Both the position numbers and the translations under genes were made by a program. A DNA stretch of 64,000 bases from Pirellulales bacterium. GTDB taxonomy: Bacteria > Planctomycetota > Planctomycetia > Pirellulales > UBA1268. The stretch lies in NCBI GenBank assembly GCA_040397585.1, contig JBBAVS010000004.1:717-64716 (forward strand). The letters run 5' to 3'. Under the pieces are notes generated by a model. The model made no database searches, had not been told where the DNA came from, and saw only the letters and a program-made list of their open reading frames with translations. This document shows positions 378 to 62,686 of this stretch, one piece after another. Numbering within the stretch: the stretch's first letter is position 1; each line of letters opens with the position of its first letter.

Positions 378-451
378 CAGGAAGCCCAATCGCGTAAGCG
401 ATGGGGACTGCCCGTAGCCAGAAAGCCCAATCGCGTAAGCGATGGGGACTG
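378..451 (+). repeat. Two tandem copies (41-nt period) of the CAGGAAGC-hairpin repeat, stem variant A
   Basis: caggaagcccaatcgcgtaagcgatggggactg at 378-410 and cagaaagcccaatcgcgtaagcgatggggactg at 419-451. Each holds stem CCCAATCGC, loop GTAA, stem GCGATGGGG. The first copy starts 3 nt after the fusA stop. Confidence 0.9.
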
Positions 452-1165
452 CCGAAAGTGGCCGCAGGTTTTCAACCTGCGGAATCCCTCCCTCCGATCC
501 CCGGGCAGGTTAAAAACCTGCCCCCACGTGAGCGGCCTGCCTTGCTCGCCCCTCTGCTCCTCCTGTTCCTCCCCCTCTCGGCCCTCGCCGCGGACCCCGC
601 TGCCGCCCCGGCCGACGTCCCGCCCCGCCCCACGATGCAACAGCTCCCCGCGGCCGCCTCGCTCGAGGCCCCGCCCACCGCCCGGGAGCTGGTGGATGCC
701 CGGGAGGAGTTCGAGCGGCGGTATCCCGGCATCCTGGCCCGCGGGCGGACCACGATCGGGGCGACGGTGATCGCCGACACCCTGATCGAGGCGGCGACCA
801 CGGAGGAGGATCGTGACGTCAAGTGGCTGATGCTTGCGGAGGCCCGGCGAATGGCCGTGGTCTCCGGCAATGCGAAGTCGCTCGACCGGGCGATCGTGCT
901 GGCGTCGGCCACCTACGAGTTCGACGCCGACGCGGAGGAGCTTCGGTCGCTGAAGGAGATTCCGGTGCGGCTGCTGGCTCCGGAGCGGGCGATGGCATTC
1001 GCCGAGGTGGCGGAGAAGGTGGCGGGGCGAGCGGAGAGCGACGGCCGCCGCGACCTCGCGATCATGTCGCTCAATCTCGCGGTCCGCGGCTGGCAGCGGG
1101 CGGGTGCGATCGACGCGGCCCGCAAGGCGGCGGCCCGGCACGACGAGTTGATCGCGGGGCCGTGA
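401..1165 (+). CDS. Hypothetical secreted protein; start codon uncertain, probably downstream of 523
   Basis: The longest ORF begins inside the repeat/palindrome region, so its first ~45 codons are probably not translated. It has a hydrophobic signal-like stretch ALLAPLLLLFLPLSALAADP (an in-frame TTG lies at 542). The Ala/Arg-rich helical body resembles the N-terminal half of the 36404-37867 product. Confidence 0.5.
   Translation: MGTARSQKAQSRKRWGLPKVAAGFQPAESLPPIPGQVKNLPPRERPALLAPLLLLFLPLSALAADPAAAPADVPPRPTMQQLPAAASLEAPPTARELVDAREEFERRYPGILARGRTTIGATVIADTLIEAATTEEDRDVKWLMLAEARRMAVVSGNAKSLDRAIVLASATYEFDADAEELRSLKEIPVRLLAPERAMAFAEVAEKVAGRAESDGRRDLAIMSLNLAVRGWQRAGAIDAARKAAARHDELIAGP
462..523. 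repeat. Two short perfect palindromes sharing GCAGGTT/AACCTGC arms
   Basis: ccgcaggtt-ttc-aacctgcgg at 462-482 and gggcaggtt-aaaa-acctgccc at 503-523. The same arms recur at 10786-10806. Confidence 0.85.
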
Positions 1166-1167
1166 GC

Positions 1168-1366
1168 CAGGAAGCCCAATCGCGTAAGCGATGGGGACTG
1201 CTGAGACTCAGGAAGCCCAATCGCGTAAGCGATGGGGATGGCTGAGACTCAGGAAGCCCAATCGCGTAAGCGATGGGGATGACGCCGTGCGGTTCGCGAT
1301 CGTACCGCTTACGCGGTTACGCTTCCTGAGCCGGATCGTACCGCTTACGCGGTTACGCTTCCTGAC
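1168..1366. repeat. Mosaic repeat cluster: three forward variant-A units (41-nt period), then two reverse variant-C units (36-nt period)
   Basis: Forward units lie at 1168-1200, 1209-1240 and 1250-1281. Reverse units gatcgtaccgcttacgcggttacgcttcctga(g/c) lie at 1298-1330 and 1334-1366. The cluster sits between convergent genes and starts 2 nt after stop 1163-1165. Confidence 0.9.
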
Positions 1367-10765: not shown

Positions 10766-10806
10766 GTGGGTGCAGGTTTACGTGGGTGCAGGTTTTCAAC
10801 CTGCAC
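10766..10806. repeat. GCAGGTT/AACCTGC palindrome with an upstream duplicated half-site, just after the ligase stop codon
   Basis: gtgggtgcaggttta at 10766-10780 is repeated at 10782-10796. The perfect palindrome gtgcaggtt-ttc-aacctgcac lies at 10786-10806. Confidence 0.85.
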
Positions 10807-48338: not shown

Positions 48339-48367
48339 AAGCCACAAGGCTTGTCTGCGCGAGTGCC

Positions 48368-48766
48368 ATGAGCCGACATCCGCGGCAGCCTCGTCGCTCA
48401 GCCTGGACCCTTACGGCAGCGACGTTCGGATACGCCTGCCTCCTGTTTTGGGCAACGCATGCGCCTGACGTGCGGCCGCCATCGATCGGTCCGCCGGGCG
48501 TTCCCTCCGACAAGATTTTTCATTTCCTGGGATACGCTGCGTTTGCCTTTCTTGCGACCCTGTCCCTCATCGTTTGGCGAGGCAGACACCGCGTCGTACT
48601 CATCACGGCGGTTTCGCTCGCCTTCATTGCGGGGCTCGATGAGCTTACGCAACCGCTGACGCATCGCGATGCGGAGTTTGCCGACTGGTGCGCCGATGCT
48701 GCGGGGGCTTTCGTAGGTGCCCTCCTCGCTCTTCGCTTGTTCGCGGCGGTGAGACAGTCAGGCTGA
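48368..48766 (+). CDS. VanZ-like family membrane protein
   Basis: DKIFHFLGYAAFAFL, GLDELTQ, RDAEFADWCADAAGAFVGA, and four TM segments. Confidence 0.7.
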   Translation: MSRHPRQPRRSAWTLTAATFGYACLLFWATHAPDVRPPSIGPPGVPSDKIFHFLGYAAFAFLATLSLIVWRGRHRVVLITAVSLAFIAGLDELTQPLTHRDAEFADWCADAAGAFVGALLALRLFAAVRQSG

Positions 48767-48786
48767 CACCCTGACGGAGTCTCTCC

Positions 48787-53954: not shown

Positions 53955-56900
53955 ATGGCCGCCACCGTGCCATCGCGGCTCGTCGCGATCATCACCGCCG
54001 CCGACCCTGCCACGCGGGATCAGTCGATGGAGTCCGTGTGTCGAGGGGCTGCGCTCGAGGAGTTGCTCGGGGAGAGCGCCGCGCTCGAGCGGTTTCGCCG
54101 CGAAAGCGGCAACCTCTACGAACGCGTGAGGGCATTGTTTTTTCTCTACGCGATCCACCGGTTTCATATGCCGGCACGGCTGGCAGGGGAGGTCCCCATC
54201 GCTTACGCGATTGGGCTTCCTGAGGGAGAGAGCCGTGGGGTCGGCCATCTCGATGCCGCGCTGATTCCCTACGAGGGCTACCAGCATCTGCTGAACCGGC
54301 GGTTCGAGGAGGCGATCGAGACTTTCCTTTCGACGCAGGAATCCAACGGACCGTCGGACGCGGTCTCCAGCGCCCTCGCGACAGCGTATCGCGATCTCGG
54401 GCTCCAGACGCTGGCCAATCAGGTGCGGCGGAGCGTCCGCAGCCTTCGCGGCAACCAATGGATGTTTCGCGTTGGCCATCCCGCCGATCACGCCCTGCGC
54501 ATCCGGCCGGAACTGCTCGCCAAGTCTGCCGTCGGGCCGGATGGCGCGGGCATGTATCCGGTGCTTCGGGAATCGACGCCCGTCCGGATGGATCTCTCGC
54601 ATTCCGGGTGGAGCGACATCTTCTTCCTCGGGATGGACTTTCCCGAGGGGGCGCGGGTGCTCAACGTGTCGATCGACCTCGCCGTACATGGTCGCGACGC
54701 GGCCCCAAAGCCTCCGGTCGAAGCCTATCTGCGGGTGATCGACGAACCCGTCTTGAGGCTCACCAGTGTGGACCTCGGCGCCACGGCCGAGATCACCGAT
54801 CTTGCGGAGGTGTTTGATTTTGCCCGCGACTACCTCGGCCTTTTGAAGGCAGCCGTGATCGCGGCCGGGATCGTGCCCCCGGGTGTGGAGGGATCGGGCG
54901 AAAACCTGGCGACGCTCCTCGAACGCGTTGTCGGTCCCGGCTTGGGCCTCGAACTCGTCAGCAGCGTCAACAACATCCCGAAGGGATCGCGGCTTGCCGT
55001 ATCCACGAATCTGCTCGCGGCGTTGATCGCCGCCTGCATGCGGGCCACCGGACAGGCGGCAGCGCTCACCGGGCAACTCACCGAAGCCGAACGGCGGCTC
55101 GTGGCGGCGCGGGCCATCCTCGGCGAGTGGCTCGGCGGCAGCGGCGGCGGCTGGCAAGATTCCGGGGGCGTCTGGCCCGCGGCGAAGCTCATCCGGGGTG
55201 TCGCGGCCGCGGAAGGCGATCCGGAACACGGCATGAGCCGCGGCCGGCTCCTGCCGCGGCACGACGCCGTGAAGCTCGGGGCCGACCTCCAGGAGTCGCT
55301 GGTACTCGTGCACGGCGGGATGGCACAGAACGTGGGGCCGATCCTGGAGATGGTGACCGAAAAGTATCTCCTGCGGAGTGAGACTGAATGGCGGGCCCGG
55401 CAGGAGGCGGGGGAGGTGCTCGACGAGATCATCGCCGCCGTGGAGGCGGGCGACGTGAACCGGATCGCCGCGGCCACGACGCGAAACTTCTTTGGCCCGA
55501 TTCAGGCGATCATCCCGTGGGCGACGAACCTCTACACCGAAACGATCATCGACCGCGTGCGGGAGCGGTTCGGTGACCGCTTTCGTGGCTTCTGGATGCT
55601 CGGCGGTATGTCGGGCGGCGGCATGGGATTTATCTTCTCGCCCGAAGCGAAGGCCGAGGCCCAGGAGGCCCTCGCTGAGATCATGCGGCAGGCGAAGCGG
55701 GAACTGGAACATGCCCTTCCGTTCGCCATGGAGCCCGTCGTCTACGACTTCGCCGTCAACGACCGCGGCACGTGGGGCGACCTGCTGTCTGGCCCTGCCG
55801 CCTTGATGCCCGCCGGCTATTACGCGTTGACGGTGCCCACGCTCTTGAAGCGGCAGACGCTACCGCCGTCGCGGCGGGCCGAACTCGACGCCTTCGGGGC
55901 CGCCTGTCGGACGCAGCCCCAGCTCGCCGGGATGGTGGACACGCTCTTCGACCGGCTCTTCCCGCGGACAGCCGGGCGGGGGTCGGCGGCCGATCTTCGC
56001 CGCCTGCTGTCCGACCTCGGCTTCGATGAGGTGCAGCACGAGCAGATTCGCGCCGACCTGCAGCACGGGCGGATCGGCCTGGCGCAGAACCGGCTTCCCG
56101 CCGCCACCTCGCTCGAAGACGTGGAGGATAACGATGTGAGCTTTTCAGGATCGCGCGACGAGGCGACGTTTCGGGAGGCAGGCCTCGTGGCCCTTGCCCG
56201 CGGCGAAGCGGCGGTCGTGACCCTTGCCGCCGGCGTGGGCAGCCGCTGGACGCAGGGGGCCGGCGTCGTCAAAGCCCTGAACCCCTTCTGCCGGCTCGGC
56301 GGCCGGCACCGATCGTTTCTGGAGGTGCACCTTGCGAAGACGCGGGCGACCGGCCGGATGGCCGGTATGCCGGTGCCGCACGTTGCCACCACGAGCCACC
56401 TGACGCACGAGCAGATCGCGGCGGCGATCGCCCGCTGGAACGTGGCCGACCTGCCGGTCGTGCTCTCGCCGGGCCGTGCCGTGGGGCTCCGGATGGTGCC
56501 GATGACCCGTGATCTGCGGTTCGCGTGGGAGGAACTCTCGCATCAGGTGCTCGACGAGCAGAAGCAGAAGGTACGCGACAGCCTGCATGCGGCGCTGCTC
56601 GCCTGGGCGGAGTCGGCCGGCGAAGGAAGCGACTACACCGACAACCTCCCGCTCCAGTGCCTTCACCCCGTAGGGCATTGGTACGAGATCCCCAACATGC
56701 TCCGCAATGGCGTGTTGCGGACGCTCTTGGCCGAGCGGCCGAATCTCCGCTGGCTGTTCCTCCACAACATCGACACCGTCGGAGCCGACCTCGATCCCGC
56801 CCTGCTGGGCCGGCACATCGCCGGCGCATCGTGCCTGACGTATGAGGTGATTCCGCGGCGGATCGAGGATCGCGGGGGCGGACTGGCCCGCGTCAACGGT

Positions 56901-57350
56901 CGCCCGCGGCTGGTGGAAGGCCTGGCGATGCCTCGTGAGGAGGACGAGTTCAGGCTGCGTTTCTACAACACGCTCTCGACGTGGATCGACATTGATCGGC
57001 TCCTCGGCGTGTTCGGGCTTGGGCGAGGTGATTTGGATGACGAGGCGAAGGTGGCCGCCGCCGTCCGGTCCGTCGCTGCCAAGGTGCCGACCTACGTGAC
57101 GCTCAAGGACGTGAAGAAGCGGTGGGGCCATGGCCAGGAGGACGTGCTTCCCGTGGCGCAGTTCGAAAAGCTCTGGGGCGACATGACGGCGCTGCCCGAG
57201 GTGAGTTGCCGGTTCGTCGTGGTGCCTCGGCAGCGCGGGCAGCAGCTCAAGGACGTGGCCCAGCTCGACGGGTGGCTTCGGGATGGCTCCGCGGCGTACG
57301 TCGAGCGGCTCTGCGACTGGGGGTCGCGATCTCAGCGGGCCAGTCGGTAG
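53955..57350 (+). CDS. Large fusion protein: GHMP-kinase-like (fucokinase-type) region plus a C-terminal UDPGP-family (UDP-sugar pyrophosphorylase-type) nucleotidyltransferase
   Basis: [20 protein letters not shown] and [15 protein letters not shown] resemble GHMP motifs II/III. The C-terminal [31 protein letters not shown] and [12 protein letters not shown] resemble UDPGP-family blocks. Start at MAATVPSRL (ATG 53955). Confidence 0.55.
54192..54224 (-). repeat. Variant-A hairpin repeat unit embedded in frame in the 53955-57350 CDS
   Basis: gtccccatcgcttacgcgattgggcttcctgag is the exact reverse complement of the unit at 378-410 (minus its terminal base). It is 33 nt, or 11 codons, read as [11 protein letters not shown]. 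Confidence 0.9.
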
Positions 57351-58600: not shown

Positions 58601-59923
58601 ATGCCGAGCCCCGCCCCAGAGCCCATTTCGCCCCGGCCCCTGACCATCTGGCTCGTCAATCCGTTCGACGACATTCCGGGTGAAGGGCCGCCGCCCCTCC
58701 GCTATTGGACGCTTGCCCGCGTTCTCGCAGCCCGGGGGCACGACGTCACCTGGTGGACGGCCACCTGGAGCCACCGCCGCAAGGCGATTCGCACGGCCCC
58801 TCTGGGGATTCGCGAAGACGAGGGCTTCGCCGTGCGGCTCGTGGCGGTGCGGCCGTATGAGAAGAATGTGTCGCTGGCTCGGATCGGTAGCCATCGCGAC
58901 TTCGGCCGCACCTTCGAGCGGCTGGCGAACGAGTCGATCTCGTCGGGCCAGCTGGAACGCCCCGACATCCTCCTCGCGAGCCTGCCGCCGCTCGAAGGCC
59001 CCGAGGCTGCCGCCCGGCTCGCCCGCAGGCTCGATGCGACGTTCGTGCTCGACGTTCTGGACGGCTGGTCGGATGCGGCCGAGGGCATGCTGCCCGGGCC
59101 AGGTTTTCTCAAGCGCCTGCTGGCGCCGTTCGTGGTTGGAGGCCTACGGACTCGGCTGAAGGAGCTGCTCGATGCCGCCGACGCCGTCTCCGCGGCCACG
59201 CAAACCTATGCCGACACCGTGCTCCGCGACGCCCCCGCCGCGCTGCCCCGCCACGTCTGCTACCTCGGTGCCTACCCGCAGGAGTTCGCCGCACCGCCGC
59301 GGGCCATCGACCATGTGCCGCTGCCCGATGGCAGCAGTGACGCGGCGACCGCACCGCCGGCGCTCGAGTGCGTGTATGCCGGCTCGCTGGAGACGGGCCA
59401 GGATCTCGACGTGCTGCCCGCCGCCGTGCGGCAGTTGGCGGCCGCCGGAGTGAACGCCACGATCCATGTGGCCGGCACGGGCGCGGCCGAGGCCACGCTC
59501 CGCCGGGCCGCTGCCGGGCTTGGCGGACCCTGCCGGCTCGAAGTGCACGGGCTCCTGCCGCGTCCGGGATATGTGCAGCTTCTGTCGCGGTGCGACGTGG
59601 GGCTCGTGTGCGTGAAGCCCGAGTCGCTGGTCGCCGTGCCCTACAAGGCCTGCGACTACGCTGCGGCGGGCCTGGCCCTCGTGAACGCCCTTCCGGGCGA
59701 ACTCCAGCGGCTGATCGACGAGCATGCCGCCGGCGTTGCCTACACGGCCGGCGATGCCGCGTCGCTCGCTCGGGCGATCGCCGGCCTCGCTGCCGACCGC
59801 AGCCGCTTGGCGGCATGTCGCCAGGGAGCCCGCCGGCTCGCCGCCGCAGAGTTCGACCGCGAACGCACGTATCCGAAGTTCGCGGACTGGCTCGAGAGCG
59901 CGCATGCAAGCCCAGCGGCGTGA
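58601..59923 (+). CDS. Glycosyltransferase family 1
   Basis: IWLVNPFD, a GT-B C-terminal half (YAGSLETGQDL...VPYKACDYAAAGLALV), and a last five codons plus stop that lie inside a repeat unit. Confidence 0.72.
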   Translation: MPSPAPEPISPRPLTIWLVNPFDDIPGEGPPPLRYWTLARVLAARGHDVTWWTATWSHRRKAIRTAPLGIREDEGFAVRLVAVRPYEKNVSLARIGSHRDFGRTFERLANESISSGQLERPDILLASLPPLEGPEAAARLARRLDATFVLDVLDGWSDAAEGMLPGPGFLKRLLAPFVVGGLRTRLKELLDAADAVSAATQTYADTVLRDAPAALPRHVCYLGAYPQEFAAPPRAIDHVPLPDGSSDAATAPPALECVYAGSLETGQDLDVLPAAVRQLAAAGVNATIHVAGTGAAEATLRRAAAGLGGPCRLEVHGLLPRPGYVQLLSRCDVGLVCVKPESLVAVPYKACDYAAAGLALVNALPGELQRLIDEHAAGVAYTAGDAASLARAIAGLAADRSRLAACRQGARRLAAAEFDRERTYPKFADWLESAHASPAA

Positions 59924-60019
59924 GCCGTGGGGACCGCGTCCAGCGTCGGGGCGATCGTACCGCTCACGCGGTTACGCTTCCTGAGTTTCAGGAAGCCCAG
60001 CGGCGTGAGCCGTGGGGAC
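59903..60019. repeat. Repeat cluster: forward variant-B unit, reverse variant-C' unit, forward variant-B unit
   Basis: 59903-59934 is catgcaagcccagcggcgtgagccgtggggac. 59953-59985 is gatcgtaccgctcacgcggttacgcttcctgag. 59989-60019 is caggaagcccagcggcgtgagccgtggggac. Loops are GTGA. Confidence 0.9.
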
Positions 60020-60104: not shown

Positions 60105-60317
60105 ATGAACGCCGACACGATTCGTGAGTTTGTCAGACGCCAGCCGTTCGAGCCGTTCGTGATCCGCCTGTCGAACGGCGAGACGCACGAGGTGCGGCAT
60201 CCGGAATGCCTGCTCGTCACAAAGACCAAGGTGATCGTCTACTACCCAGATGACGACCGCACCGTGCATCTCTCGTTGATCCACGTCAACGCCGTGGAAA
60301 CCCTCCAATCGACCTGA
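60105..60317 (+). CDS. Small hypothetical protein (70 aa)
   Basis: ATG is preceded by GGGGAG. Compact ORF with good GC3 bias. I recognise no family. Confidence 0.5.
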   Translation: MNADTIREFVRRQPFEPFVIRLSNGETHEVRHPECLLVTKTKVIVYYPDDDRTVHLSLIHVNAVETLQST

Positions 60318-60338
60318 TGCCTCTTCGGGGGGAAGTCC

Positions 60339-60842
60339 ATGAACGCCATCCCCACTCTCGCGACGCTGATGCATGCCATTCACCGCGAGAAACTCGAGGT
60401 GGTGTTGATCGGCAATGCTGCAGCCGCGATGCATGGTGCCCCAGTCACCACCCTCGATTTCGACTTCATGTTCCGTGACACGCCGGTCAATTTGCGGAAA
60501 CTCAAGCGCGTGGCGGATGCCATCGAGGCCACGATCATGCGGCCGTTCTACCCGGTGTCGAAGCGCTATCGGATGGTGGACGATGGCACTGGGCTTCAGG
60601 CCGACTTCATGCCCGTGATTCATGGCGTGAAATCATTCGAGAGCCTCAGGTCGCGGGCCGAGGAGCGAAAGGTGGGGAGCCTGTCGCTTCTGATCGCCTC
60701 GCTCGACGACATCATTGCCAGCAAGAAGTGCGCAGGCCGGGACCGCGATCTGGCGGTGCTGCCGGTGCTCGAGAAGACACGGCGGGAGGCATTGCCAATG
60801 CCCGTCATCGGCGCGAAGCCACGGAAACGAGGAGAGGGTTGA
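60339..60842 (+). CDS. Nucleotidyltransferase-fold protein (MNT/AbiEii-like minimal NTase)
   Basis: VLIGNAAAAMHGAPVTTLDFDFMF fits the G-x-(10-13)-D-x-D pattern of minimal NTases. C-terminal ASLDDIIASKKCAGRDRD. Confidence 0.5.
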   Translation: MNAIPTLATLMHAIHREKLEVVLIGNAAAAMHGAPVTTLDFDFMFRDTPVNLRKLKRVADAIEATIMRPFYPVSKRYRMVDDGTGLQADFMPVIHGVKSFESLRSRAEERKVGSLSLLIASLDDIIASKKCAGRDRDLAVLPVLEKTRREALPMPVIGAKPRKRGEG

Positions 60843-60845
60843 CTC

Positions 60846-61028
60846 ATGGTGAAGCGAAAGCCTGGCAAGGGCAAGCAGGCACGTGGCCGCAAGGCGACGC
60901 TCGACGCGCTCGAGGCGGAGAGCGAACGGCAACTCATCGAGTTGATTCGCCGTCGGCTCGCGCTGCCGCTGGAGAAGCGGATGAACTTCCTCCGCAAACG
61001 CCTGCCGGGTGGCGGAAGTTGTTTGTGA
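60846..61028 (+). CDS. Small basic hypothetical protein (60 aa)
   Basis: Starts 4 nt after the upstream stop. Lys/Arg-rich N-terminus MVKRKPGKGKQARGRK, followed by a predicted helix. Confidence 0.4.
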   Translation: MVKRKPGKGKQARGRKATLDALEAESERQLIELIRRRLALPLEKRMNFLRKRLPGGGSCL

Positions 61029-61038
61029 GTCAGGGTGC

Positions 61039-61071
61039 GATCGTACCGCTCACGCGGTTACGCTTCCTGAG
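61039..61071 (-). repeat. Single reverse variant-C' hairpin repeat unit
   Basis: gatcgtaccgctcacgcggttacgcttcctgag, identical to 59953-59985. It starts 10 nt after stop 61026-61028. Confidence 0.9.
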
Positions 61072-61098: not shown

Positions 61099-62616
61099 AT
61101 GGCTGATCACCCTGCCACCGCCGAGCCGCCGCAGACGCTCCTCGCGTCGCTCGCCCACCTCGGGCCCGGGATCGTGCTCGCCAGTTCCATCGTGGGCAGC
61201 GGGGAGCTGATCGCCACCACCACCACCGGTGCCCAGGCGGGATTCGTACTCCTCTGGCTGATCCTCGTCGGCTGCGTGATCAAGGTGGCCGCCCAGGTGG
61301 AGATCGGCCGTACCACGCTCACCTGGGGCCGCACCGCGCTCGACTCCTTCGACCGCGTGCCCGGCCCGCGGCTCGGCGGCCGCGGCTGGATCTACTGGGC
61401 CTGGGCCGTGATGACCGCGCTGATCGTCGTGCAGCAAGGCGGCATCGTGGTGGGCGTGGCGCAAACGCTCGCGGCCGGCCTGCCGCTCACGTCCGCCGGT
61501 CGCCAGTGGAACGCCGCCCACGACGAGGCCGCGGGGCTCGTGGTGGCCGAGGCGTCGGCGCGGCGTGGGGGCGACGTAACTGCGGCCGACGGCCTCGCCG
61601 GAAAGCTTGCCGCCGCCCAGACCGCCGCGGCGGCTCTCCCGGCGCCGTTCGACGAGACCGCTTGGTGCGTGATCACCGGCCTCGTCACCGCCGCGCTGCT
61701 CGCGCTCGGCCGCTATCGGCTCATCGAACTGGTGTCGCTCGCGCTCGTGGGCACGTTCACGCTCGTCACCCTCCTGGCCCTCGCGCTGCTCCAGGTCGAT
61801 CCGGTGTGGGCGATCTCGGGCCGTGAGCTCGCCAGCGGCCTCGTGCCCGCGCTGCCCCCCGCGATCGGCGGCCGCTCGCCCATCGTCACGGCGCTGGCCA
61901 CGTTCGGCATCATCGGCGTGGGGGCGAGCGAACTGATGATCTATCCCTACTGGTGCCTCGAGAAGGGCTACGGGGCCGCGGTGGGGCCCCGCGACGACTC
62001 GCCCGCCTGGGCCCGTCGGGCCAAGGGCTGGCTCCGCGTCATGCAGCTCGACGCCTGGGCATCGATGGTGGTCTACACGCTCGTGACCGTGTGCTTCTAC
62101 CTGCTCGGGGCCGCCACGCTTGGCCGGCTGGGGCTCGTGCCCGCCGGTGGCGAAATGGTGCGGACGCTCGGCGCGATGTACACGCCCGTGTTCGGCGCGT
62201 GGGCGGGCGGGGCGTTTCGGGTGGGCGCGTTCGCGGTGCTCTATTCGACGCTGTTCGTGGCAGCCGCCGGCAATGCCCGAATGGTGGCCGACGGGCTGAT
62301 CCTGGCCCGCTGGCTGCCGGCCGACGAGCGGTCGCGGGCGGCCTGGGCGCGGCGCATCTCCGTGGCCTGGGTCCTGGTGGCGACGCTACTCGCCCTGCTC
62401 ATCCGCCAGCCGGTGGCCATGGTGCTGGCCAGCGGCATCGCGCAGTCGGTGATGCTCGCCGCCATCGGGGTCGCGGTGGTGTTTTTTCGGTGGTGGGAGA
62501 CCGATCCGCGGCTCGCCCCTTCACGGGCCTGGGACGCCCTGCTGGCGGCGTCGGTGGCGGGGCTCGTGACGGTGGGCCTGTGGACGGTGTGGGAAAAAAT
62601 CGCATCGGCGTGGTGA
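61099..62616 (+). CDS. Nramp-family divalent metal cation transporter
   Basis: LGPGIVLASSIVGSGELIATTTTGAQAGFVLLW, VIKVAAQVEIGR, and about 11-12 TM segments. Confidence 0.8.
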   Translation: MADHPATAEPPQTLLASLAHLGPGIVLASSIVGSGELIATTTTGAQAGFVLLWLILVGCVIKVAAQVEIGRTTLTWGRTALDSFDRVPGPRLGGRGWIYWAWAVMTALIVVQQGGIVVGVAQTLAAGLPLTSAGRQWNAAHDEAAGLVVAEASARRGGDVTAADGLAGKLAAAQTAAAALPAPFDETAWCVITGLVTAALLALGRYRLIELVSLALVGTFTLVTLLALALLQVDPVWAISGRELASGLVPALPPAIGGRSPIVTALATFGIIGVGASELMIYPYWCLEKGYGAAVGPRDDSPAWARRAKGWLRVMQLDAWASMVVYTLVTVCFYLLGAATLGRLGLVPAGGEMVRTLGAMYTPVFGAWAGGAFRVGAFAVLYSTLFVAAAGNARMVADGLILARWLPADERSRAAWARRISVAWVLVATLLALLIRQPVAMVLASGIAQSVMLAAIGVAVVFFRWWETDPRLAPSRAWDALLAASVAGLVTVGLWTVWEKIASAW

Positions 62617-62618
62617 AC

Positions 62619-62686
62619 ATCCCCACGGCTTACGCCGTTGGGCTTCCTGGGGCAGTCCCCACGGCTTACGCCGTTGGGCTTCCTGG
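62619..62686 (-). repeat. Two tandem reverse units (36-nt period) of the hairpin repeat, stem variant D
   Basis: atccccacggcttacgccgttgggcttcctgg at 62619-62650 and gtccccacggcttacgccgttgggcttcctgg at 62655-62686. The first starts 2 nt after the Nramp stop. A GC hairpin ggggcgg-gaag-ccgcccc follows at 62686-62703. Confidence 0.9.

Follow-up and report, generated by a model that had tools for sequence, protein, structure and literature searches.

A probable REP/BIME-type family of tagged hairpin repeats in freshwater Pirellulales

A 64,000-nt stretch of DNA from a Pirellulales bacterium (assembly GCA_040397585.1, contig JBBAVS010000004.1, positions 717 to 64,716 of the forward strand; hereafter the window) contains 14 units of a short hairpin repeat with the tag CAGGAAG, distributed over 6 loci. 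These units probably represent a lineage-specific and previously undescribed family of palindromic repeats in a freshwater clade of Pirellulales, a family of the same type as the repetitive extragenic palindromes (REPs) and bacterial interspersed mosaic elements (BIMEs) of E. coli. The family behaves as repetitive or selfish sequence at the DNA level: between close relatives, copies arise, multiply in tandem, decay or disappear, and they land mostly in spacers at the 3' ends of genes. An interspersed hairpin family resembling REP/BIME elements had been proposed in the first-pass annotation of the window, which was made from the sequence alone, and this proposal is supported by the spread of the family through Planctomycetota, by complete stem pairing in 401 of 451 units and by the alternation of two stem classes.

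A tagged hairpin in two classes

The coordinates used here are those of a 29-nt core and deviate by 0-2 nt from the 33-nt coordinates assigned initially. A structure-aware scan of the window for a 9-4-9 hairpin with AAG in front returned the 14 units that had been noted, together with their four base-paired stem versions. A covariance model (R1), the kind of check that the first-pass annotation had proposed, was trained on 60 distinct family members and run on the window with filters off. It recovered exactly the same 14 units, with scores of 30.6-50.6 bits and a runner-up at 10.7 bits, and the family was also found in relatives. The sequence CAGGAAGC occurs 16 times in the window, compared with 2.5 occurrences expected from shuffles.

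Outside the window, species-representative genomes scanned with a degenerate pattern yielded at least 90 loci, and a metagenome scan added at least 120 more, nearly all of them on JGI metagenome contigs. The collected set comprises at least 546 units in 213 loci from metagenome-assembled genome (MAG) species and metagenomes, with flanks of approximately 8-15 kb per locus. To avoid circularity in judging the stem, we searched 1.68 Mb of these sequences with the tag and the loop as the only anchors (AGGAAGC, 8 free bases, GTNA). This arm-free search returned 451 units, in which all 8 stem pairs were formed in 401 and at least 7 of 8 in 426.

Each unit starts with the 7-nt unpaired tag CAGGAAG, which is exact in 162 of 200 units, and continues with a stem of 8 bp, in which a bulged A separates the outer 3 bp from the inner 5 bp, and a GTNA loop of 4 nt. 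The stem had initially been described as 9 bp long with an unpaired or mismatched A at its fourth position. The A itself is present in all 14 window units and in 434 of the 451 arm-free units, but it is best read as a bulge in an 8-bp stem, because the class with the arms CGTAACCGC/GCGGTACG (CGTA...TACG) pairs only when this A is extrahelical. The loop, described as always of the GNRA type, conforms to this rule in the window (GTAA in 10 units, GTGA in 4) but not in relatives: the arm-free set contains 245 GTAA, 177 GTGA and 29 GTCA loops and no GTTA, and the GTCA loops show that the GNRA rule is not general. C(GNNA)G loops with a sheared G·A closing pair are very stable in DNA single strands as well, and a DNA loop of this kind would fit GTCA better than the RNA GNRA rule does.

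Stems fall into two classes, defined by an outer helix of CCC/GGG (class 1) or CGT/ACG (class 2). In the window, the inner helix of class 1 is ATCGC, ACGGC or GCGGC and that of class 2 is ACCGC; in relatives, class 2 units also have ACGCC and ACGGC. Outer helices and inner helices (ATCGC, ACGCC, ACCGC, ACGGC) combine freely and always with the matching partner, and double, compensatory changes are seen at 5 of the 8 stem pairs. The original suggestion that the stem variants are compensatory is therefore borne out, both by the fully paired arm-free units and by this modularity. Single units fold at -11 to -14 kcal/mol, with z-scores of -2 to -3.5. In these respects the 29-nt core is what a REP is defined to be, namely a short (20-40 nt) imperfect stem-loop palindrome.

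The two classes follow a strict rule in arrays. Among neighbours no more than 150 nt apart, inverted units belong to different classes in 152 pairs and to the same class in 1 (71 loci versus 1), whereas direct neighbours belong to the same class in 93 pairs and to different classes in none (62 loci versus 0). Linkers are short between heads (modal gap 2-3 nt, range 2-10 nt) and long between tails (modal gap 21 nt), so that alternating arrays have periods of 82, 92 or 102 nt; they reach 10-11 units. An inverted pair of a class 1 and a class 2 unit is approximately 76-81% complementary and can fold as one long imperfect hairpin. For example, the 59955 and 59989 units form a 26-nt inverted repeat, 81% complementary, with arms spanning 59959-60013. 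Both mixed arrays in the window obey the class rule: with strand given as a sign and class as a digit, 1168-1364 reads +1 +1 +1 -2 -2 and 59904-60017 reads +1 -2 +1. The fixed periods reported earlier for direct arrays in the window, 41 nt on the forward and 36 nt on the reverse strand, agree with the sequence (Table 1).

Units of distinct types that are regularly spaced, alternate in orientation and are joined by fixed linkers are the hallmark of a BIME, and all these features are found here. In E. coli, the Y and Z units alternate within BIMEs. REPs in E. coli BIMEs are regularly spaced and alternate in orientation (PMC2817692), and each has an unpaired 5' tag and a bulge, both of which are required for binding by the REP-associated tyrosine transposase (RAYT) (PMC3479197).

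Table 1. Units of the repeat family in the window (coordinates of 29-nt cores; score under covariance model R1)
Feature	Position	Strand	Context	Score (bits)
Class 1 unit, CAGGAAG-CCC-A-ATCGC-GTAA-GCGAT-GGG-G	378..406	+	3 nt past the stop of fusA (elongation factor G, EF-G)	50.6
Class 1 unit, tag CAGAAAG	419..447	+	Tandem copy 41 nt beyond the 378 unit	47.3
Three class 1 units (1168, 1209, 1250), period 41 nt	1168..1278	+	Begins 2 nt after the stop codon of open reading frame (ORF) 401-1165	50.6 each
Two class 2 units (1300, 1336), CAGGAAG-CGT-A-ACCGC-GTAA-GCGGT-ACG, period 36 nt	1300..1364	-	Faces the class 1 array tail-to-tail across 21 nt; the stop of minus-strand ORF 1402-1854 lies 38 nt away	47.4 each
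Class 1 unit	54194..54222	-	In frame within plus-strand gene 53955-57350	50.6
Class 1 unit, degenerate tag ATGCAAG	59904..59932	+		30.6
Class 2 unit	59955..59983	-	Inverted between two class 1 units; gaps 22 nt tail-to-tail and 5 nt head-to-head	47.5
Class 1 unit, stem CCCAGCGGC/GCCGTGGGG	59989..60017	+		46.1
Lone class 2 unit	61041..61069	-	12 nt past the stop of ORF 60846-61028	47.5
Two class 1 units (62621, 62657), stem CCCAACGGC, period 36 nt	62621..62685	-	4 nt after the stop of Nramp-family gene 61099-62616	49.3 each

Spread and turnover of the copies

Among the matches listed, genuine units occur in 12 Planctomycetota MAG species, most of them labelled Pirellulales, and on many freshwater metagenome contigs; the carriers include the unit-rich MAGs JBBAVQ01 and JAGWWA01 as well as JBJTDZ01 and GCA_029981755.1. 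An identical 29-mer predominates in many species between which orthologous proteins share only 75-85% identity, which points to continuing homogenisation or spread of the sequence. Three matches, in Terriglobia, Nitrospira and Bradyrhizobium, were rejected as chance, since their arms do not pair. The core sequences were not found in the searchable literature, and Rfam returned nothing in the window at gathering scores; in E-value mode it gave sub-threshold noise from microRNA-hairpin models.

Syntenic contigs of relatives, reached through homologues of the 1,131-aa protein of the window, allowed individual sites to be compared (loci and contigs of relatives are labelled with L-numbers). In L095 (approximately 96.5% nucleotide identity), the units are arranged as in the window, a loop and a stem differing by point changes, and CCCAACGGC stands at the site of the 59989 unit. 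In L093 (85-90% nucleotide identity), two sites that hold intact units in the window are occupied by degenerate relics: at that of 61041 the stem is broken, and at that of 62621/62657 there is a single degenerate copy. Two spacers of L093 (15990-16080 and 17150-17240) contain an approximately 110-nt composite element where the window has different units. In this composite, a GCCCGCGGCC-TTAC-GGCCGGTCGGC hairpin is followed, after a spacer, by a class 1 hairpin with a variant tag, GTA[C/T]AAG-CCCAACGGC-GTAA-GCCGTGGGG; the host is a relative with 95% protein identity. L097 (GCA_046339335.1), at 83% protein identity, has no units in 14 kb.

Copy number varies as well. Downstream of fusA, L188 has one unit, the window has two and L210 has a +1 -2 +1 array. 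Both L188 and L210 carry a class 1 unit at the position orthologous to 378, and the 419 copy is absent from L188, which is 98% identical; this is copy-number variation.

The five-unit array at 1168-1364 is bracketed in its entirety by an 18-nt direct repeat, GATCGCGGGGCCGTGAGC (1150-1167 and 1371-1388), whose sequence is that of the 3' terminus of ORF 401-1165, stop codon included. A minus-strand gene of approximately 1 kb, which L188, L210 and L141 carry between the array and a gene for a 150-aa protein, is missing from the window at this junction. Together, the bracketing repeat and the missing gene suggest a repeat-associated deletion or rearrangement.

Several other repeats were encountered along with the family. 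In L006, L016, L026, L046, L051, L066, L069, L076 and L088 (MAGs JBBAVQ and JAGWWA), a class 1 unit forms part of a longer repeat, with an approximately 200-nt period, in which outer inverted motifs, GGCACGGGCAGCCCCTCG ... CTCGGGGCTGCCCATGCC, flank the hairpin. This repeat, absent from the window, looks like a larger composite element resembling a MITE (a miniature transposable element with inverted repeats). A second palindrome family, GCAGGTT-NNN-AACCTGC, has a perfect stem of 7-9 bp and a 3-nt loop. It is found in the window at 464-480, 505-521 and 10788-10804 (3 exact copies and 1 with two mismatches, against 0.13 expected), and two of its copies directly follow the fusA-proximal units. 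It recurs in L188 and in the related MAG loci L033, L039, L077 and L081, often interleaved with CAGGAAG units. The only pattern match on a viral contig, L218:5506-5533 (IMG/VR UViG_3300033076_000175), folds with 8 of 8 pairs. It lies within coding-like sequence, and its stem, CCGAACTGC/GCAGTCGG, was seen nowhere else; this match may be due to chance.

Gene neighbourhoods and altered genes

According to crude gene calls based on GC content at third codon positions (GC3), about 95% of the units are extragenic. Units occupy 21% of convergent, 17% of tandem and 10% of divergent spacers; they are about half as frequent in divergent spacers (18 of 184) as in the rest (157 of 876; p=0.006). We found no orientation bias relative to the upstream gene, as 54 units are sense and 48 antisense, with neither class biased.

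The first-pass annotation had placed the first units just past the stop codons at 374, 1165, 61028 and 62616, with a fifth locus overlapping a stop. This is accurate: the gaps to the cores are 3, 2, 12 and 4 nt, and 5 of the 6 window loci overlap a stop codon or lie within 12 nt of one. Across the family, two placement tests gave no enrichment beside stop codons. Convergent spacers have 16 stop-proximal units versus 17.1 expected from spacer length, and tandem spacers have 14 versus 11.7, although the tandem test is weak because the gene caller over-extends gene starts. The stop adjacency in the window is real, and it is explained by the occupation of short 3' spacers by units. Several 3'-end spacers of the window, for example 48339-48786, have no unit.

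We also considered intrinsic (Rho-independent) terminators. No T-tract follows the units, the next letters being ACTG, ATGG or ATCG, and none of the terminator-like sites at 1-2000 coincides with a unit. This reading was rejected, since the hairpins are not followed by a T/U tract. The hints of an RNA-level role that had been read from the window fail across the family on four counts: GTCA loops, balanced orientation, no excess near stops and no T-tract.

Two window units have changed proteins. The 54194 unit, at the sixth locus, is not intergenic; protein alignment shows that its locus is coding: it lies in frame in gene 53955-57350 (plus strand), which encodes a conserved UDPGP-domain protein, and adds an 11-aa peptide to a variable linker. 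The peptide is restricted to a sub-clade, being found in 8 of the 120 closest homologue clusters, all of them at least 85% identical to the window protein. It is present in two copies, as a 45-nt tandem duplication, in L095 and L096, and the site is empty in L097. Such intragenic copies are rare, amounting to about 1 of the 14 window units and a few percent of the family as a whole. The homologue P0010 has no insert. In the homologue P0023, from another lineage, the same linker holds approximately three copies of an unrelated 30-aa repeat, RIPVAPAPGFDGKAVAGDVGEGRGIDGVGA, and this linker may be a hotspot for repeat insertions.

The 59904 unit has replaced the final codons of the glycosyltransferase gene 58601-59923 (Pfam GT1 match), so that the TGA within its GTGA loop (59921-59923) serves as the stop codon; the L093 orthologue has a TAG of its own and no unit there. 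A third case concerns gene calling. The ATG that gives the longest version of ORF 401-1165 lies at 401, inside the 3' arm of the 378 unit (GCGATGGGG), and the ORF then crosses the 419 unit. The real start is probably downstream, near a signal-peptide-like stretch.

Two groups of neighbouring genes deserve mention. Between 1918 and 53000, the window is occupied by a long, mainly plus-strand cluster related to polysaccharides, with Poly_export and several glycosyltransferases; its counterpart in relatives includes two asparagine-synthase paralogues. The GC3 bias of this cluster is weaker than that of the window ends, and no CAGGAAG unit lies within it. A group of three small genes at 60105-61028 (70, 167 and 60 aa), all in the same orientation, is bracketed by units and keeps its synteny in L093 and L095. 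For the 167-aa product there is a weak match, below threshold, to the nucleotidyltransferase family DUF6036, and the three genes may form a toxin-antitoxin-like module.

Mechanism and alternative explanations

The likeness to E. coli REPs (Y, Z1, Z2) and BIMEs is extensive. In both, an imperfect palindrome of 30-35 nt begins with a conserved 5' tag that stays unpaired, and a bulge or mismatch interrupts its stem; both differ in copy number between strains and form arrays of variable length from two alternating hairpin classes with fixed short and long linkers; and the present units, like the E. coli REPs, lie mostly in spacers at gene 3' ends, with a copy number that is probably high as well. 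On the other hand, the tag is CAGGAAG (7 nt) here and GTAG there, the 8-bp stem and conserved GTNA loop contrast with a stem of approximately 12-14 bp, and homotypic direct arrays with 41- or 36-nt periods are common in the present family. The host belongs to Planctomycetota rather than Enterobacteria, and, unlike the E. coli REPs with their TnpA-REP, the sampled loci have so far revealed no RAYT. REPINs, known from Pseudomonas and other Gammaproteobacteria, resemble the family in their short-spacer inverted doublets that can fold into a long imperfect hairpin, in a master sequence common to related species and in their lineage-specific abundance. Their arms are near-identical copies, whereas the arms here come from two distinct classes with approximately 76% identity, and many of our units are singlets or members of direct arrays. 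The GTAG- and CGTC-tagged REP superfamilies are likewise short stem-loops tagged at one end by a conserved unpaired motif, although CAGGAAG matches neither tag; the survey by Di Nocera et al. (2013) also reported tagged stem-loop repeats in Planctomycetes (PMC3733652). Finally, the copy in gene 53955-57350 recalls the Rickettsia palindromic elements (PMC10969869), as it is an in-frame palindromic repeat in a conserved gene whose peptide, here in 1-2 copies, sits in a tolerant region. Those elements measure approximately 100-150 bp and are often intragenic, unlike the 33-nt units (45-nt period) described here, which rarely are.

If REP-RAYT and IS200/IS605 systems are a guide, a host-encoded enzyme of the HUH/Y1 type would recognise the folded single strand with its tag, bulge and hairpin, and the same enzyme would keep the master sequence near-identical between species. 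Arrays would lengthen and shrink through local duplication and slippage, and if mRNA 3' ends were affected at all, this would follow secondarily from the presence of stable hairpins in 3' untranslated regions (UTRs).

Looking for such an enzyme, as the first-pass annotation had advised, we searched ORFs of at least 80 aa from the window and the first 90 genome loci and then from 125 further loci (216 sources). The queries were E. coli RayT (phmmer), the HUH...Y(x2)NP motif and a profile of seven Y1 proteins from several phyla. RayT of E. coli is 40-45% identical to that of cyanobacteria or Chloroflexota, a degree of conservation across phyla at which a typical RAYT would be detected. A tblastn search of plasmids gave no planctomycete RAYT seed, and all-against-all clustering of neighbour genes revealed no recurring transposase beside the units. 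The only recurrent neighbours were ABC ATPases, large repeat proteins and spurious ORFs across arrays, and the genes bracketed by units are housekeeping genes.

Several observations count against a REP/BIME-type family. No significant RAYT or Y1 transposase was found among 11,310 ORFs in the 1.68 Mb flanking the 546 units (best E-value 0.037), which is weak evidence, as only 8-15 kb per locus was covered. Given the report that RAYT genes have BIMEs on either side (PMC3479197), there would be some chance, in systems of the E. coli type, of seeing one near the units. With CAGGAAG as its tag instead of GTAG or CGTC, by which the described REP superfamilies are defined (PMC3733652), the family falls in neither of them. 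No clean pair of empty and filled intergenic sites with defined borders was recovered, so that local duplication on top of old dispersal could stand in place of transposition. Conservation of the tag, bulge and loop would fit selection for binding of another protein, or for a role in RNA, equally well. It is conceivable, if rather unlikely, that these features define a third tagged REP system, in which the CAGGAAG tag, the bulged-A hairpin and the GTNA loop would be read by an enzyme other than a canonical RAYT (a very divergent HUH protein, or another nuclease or recombinase); such a system would be confined to a freshwater clade of Pirellulales and sufficiently active to remodel the ends of genes and to supply proteins with peptide modules.

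Could the units instead be cis-acting RNA elements of 3' UTRs, with each copy under selection? They might act as terminators independent of a U-tract or as barriers to 3' exonucleases, or be recognised by an RNA-binding protein through their purine-rich tag, bulged A and GNRA-like loop. The stop codons beside 5 of the 6 window loci, the depletion of divergent (promoter) spacers, the covarying stem with its conserved loop and bulge, and the stability of single hairpins (-11 to -14 kcal/mol) would all suit this role, and E. coli REPs have been reported as 3' UTR regulators (bioRxiv 10.64898/2026.03.23.713779). Against it, the units are sense and antisense to the upstream gene in nearly equal numbers (54 and 48), and a loop transcribed from the reverse strand is UUAC or UCAC. 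The GTCA loops violate the GNRA rule, the proximity to stops is within the expectation from spacer length, and 3'-end spacers such as 48339-48786 do without a unit. Orthologous copies are decayed or absent in close relatives, one copy lies inside coding sequence, and neither a T-tract after the units nor an Rfam match was found. We therefore consider this explanation improbable.

The remaining alternatives keep the units at the DNA level. They could descend, in MITE-like form, from the hairpins at the ends of an autonomous insertion sequence (IS), for example of the IS200/IS605 type, which would mobilise them in trans in place of a single-copy domesticated RAYT. The ends of IS608-type elements share the design of a tagged hairpin with an extrahelical base (PMC3479197), in some MAGs the class 1 unit sits in composite repeats of approximately 110-200 nt with outer inverted motifs, and abundance differs strongly between lineages. 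Yet neither a Y1 transposase nor a recurring transposase family lies beside the units in the 216 sources, no gene-carrying full-length element bounded by both hairpin classes was seen, and one master sequence across 12 species suggests long vertical persistence, which is more like REP/RAYT systems than like bursts of IS or MITE activity. We give this origin only a small chance.

Integron attC sites, which recombine as folded single strands with extrahelical bases and follow cassette ORFs, come to mind because the units are imperfect palindromes with an extrahelical base, often stand right after stops and bracket the three small genes at 60105-61028. Such sites are approximately 57-141 nt long, however, and the units, at 29-33 nt, lack the RYYYAAC/GTTRRRY core sites. 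They also occur in both orientations and in head-to-tail arrays without intervening cassettes, they flank housekeeping genes such as fusA, and the bracketed small genes are syntenic in relatives rather than variable cassettes. Size, core-site content and array structure effectively refute this reading, to which we attach almost no probability.

A REP/BIME-type family therefore remains the explanation that we favour, and it bears on the study of these repeats in general. Almost all work on REP/BIME and REPIN-RAYT systems has been done in Proteobacteria, and they are barely studied in Planctomycetota. The recurrence, in a well-defined family from uncultured freshwater Pirellulales, of the E. coli BIME grammar, with its two alternating classes, under a different tag suggests that this grammar reflects a general mechanism and is not an enterobacterial peculiarity. 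For the genomes that carry it, the family has practical consequences. Its units create false N-terminal extensions and ORF starts in gene calls, as in ORF 401-1165, and they break assemblies and MAG contigs, several loci ending at arrays or having runs of N beside them. Real proteins have been altered too, one by an in-frame 11-aa insert and another by a replaced C-terminus including the stop codon. If the partner enzyme is not a RAYT, the family would point to a new activity that processes single-stranded DNA.

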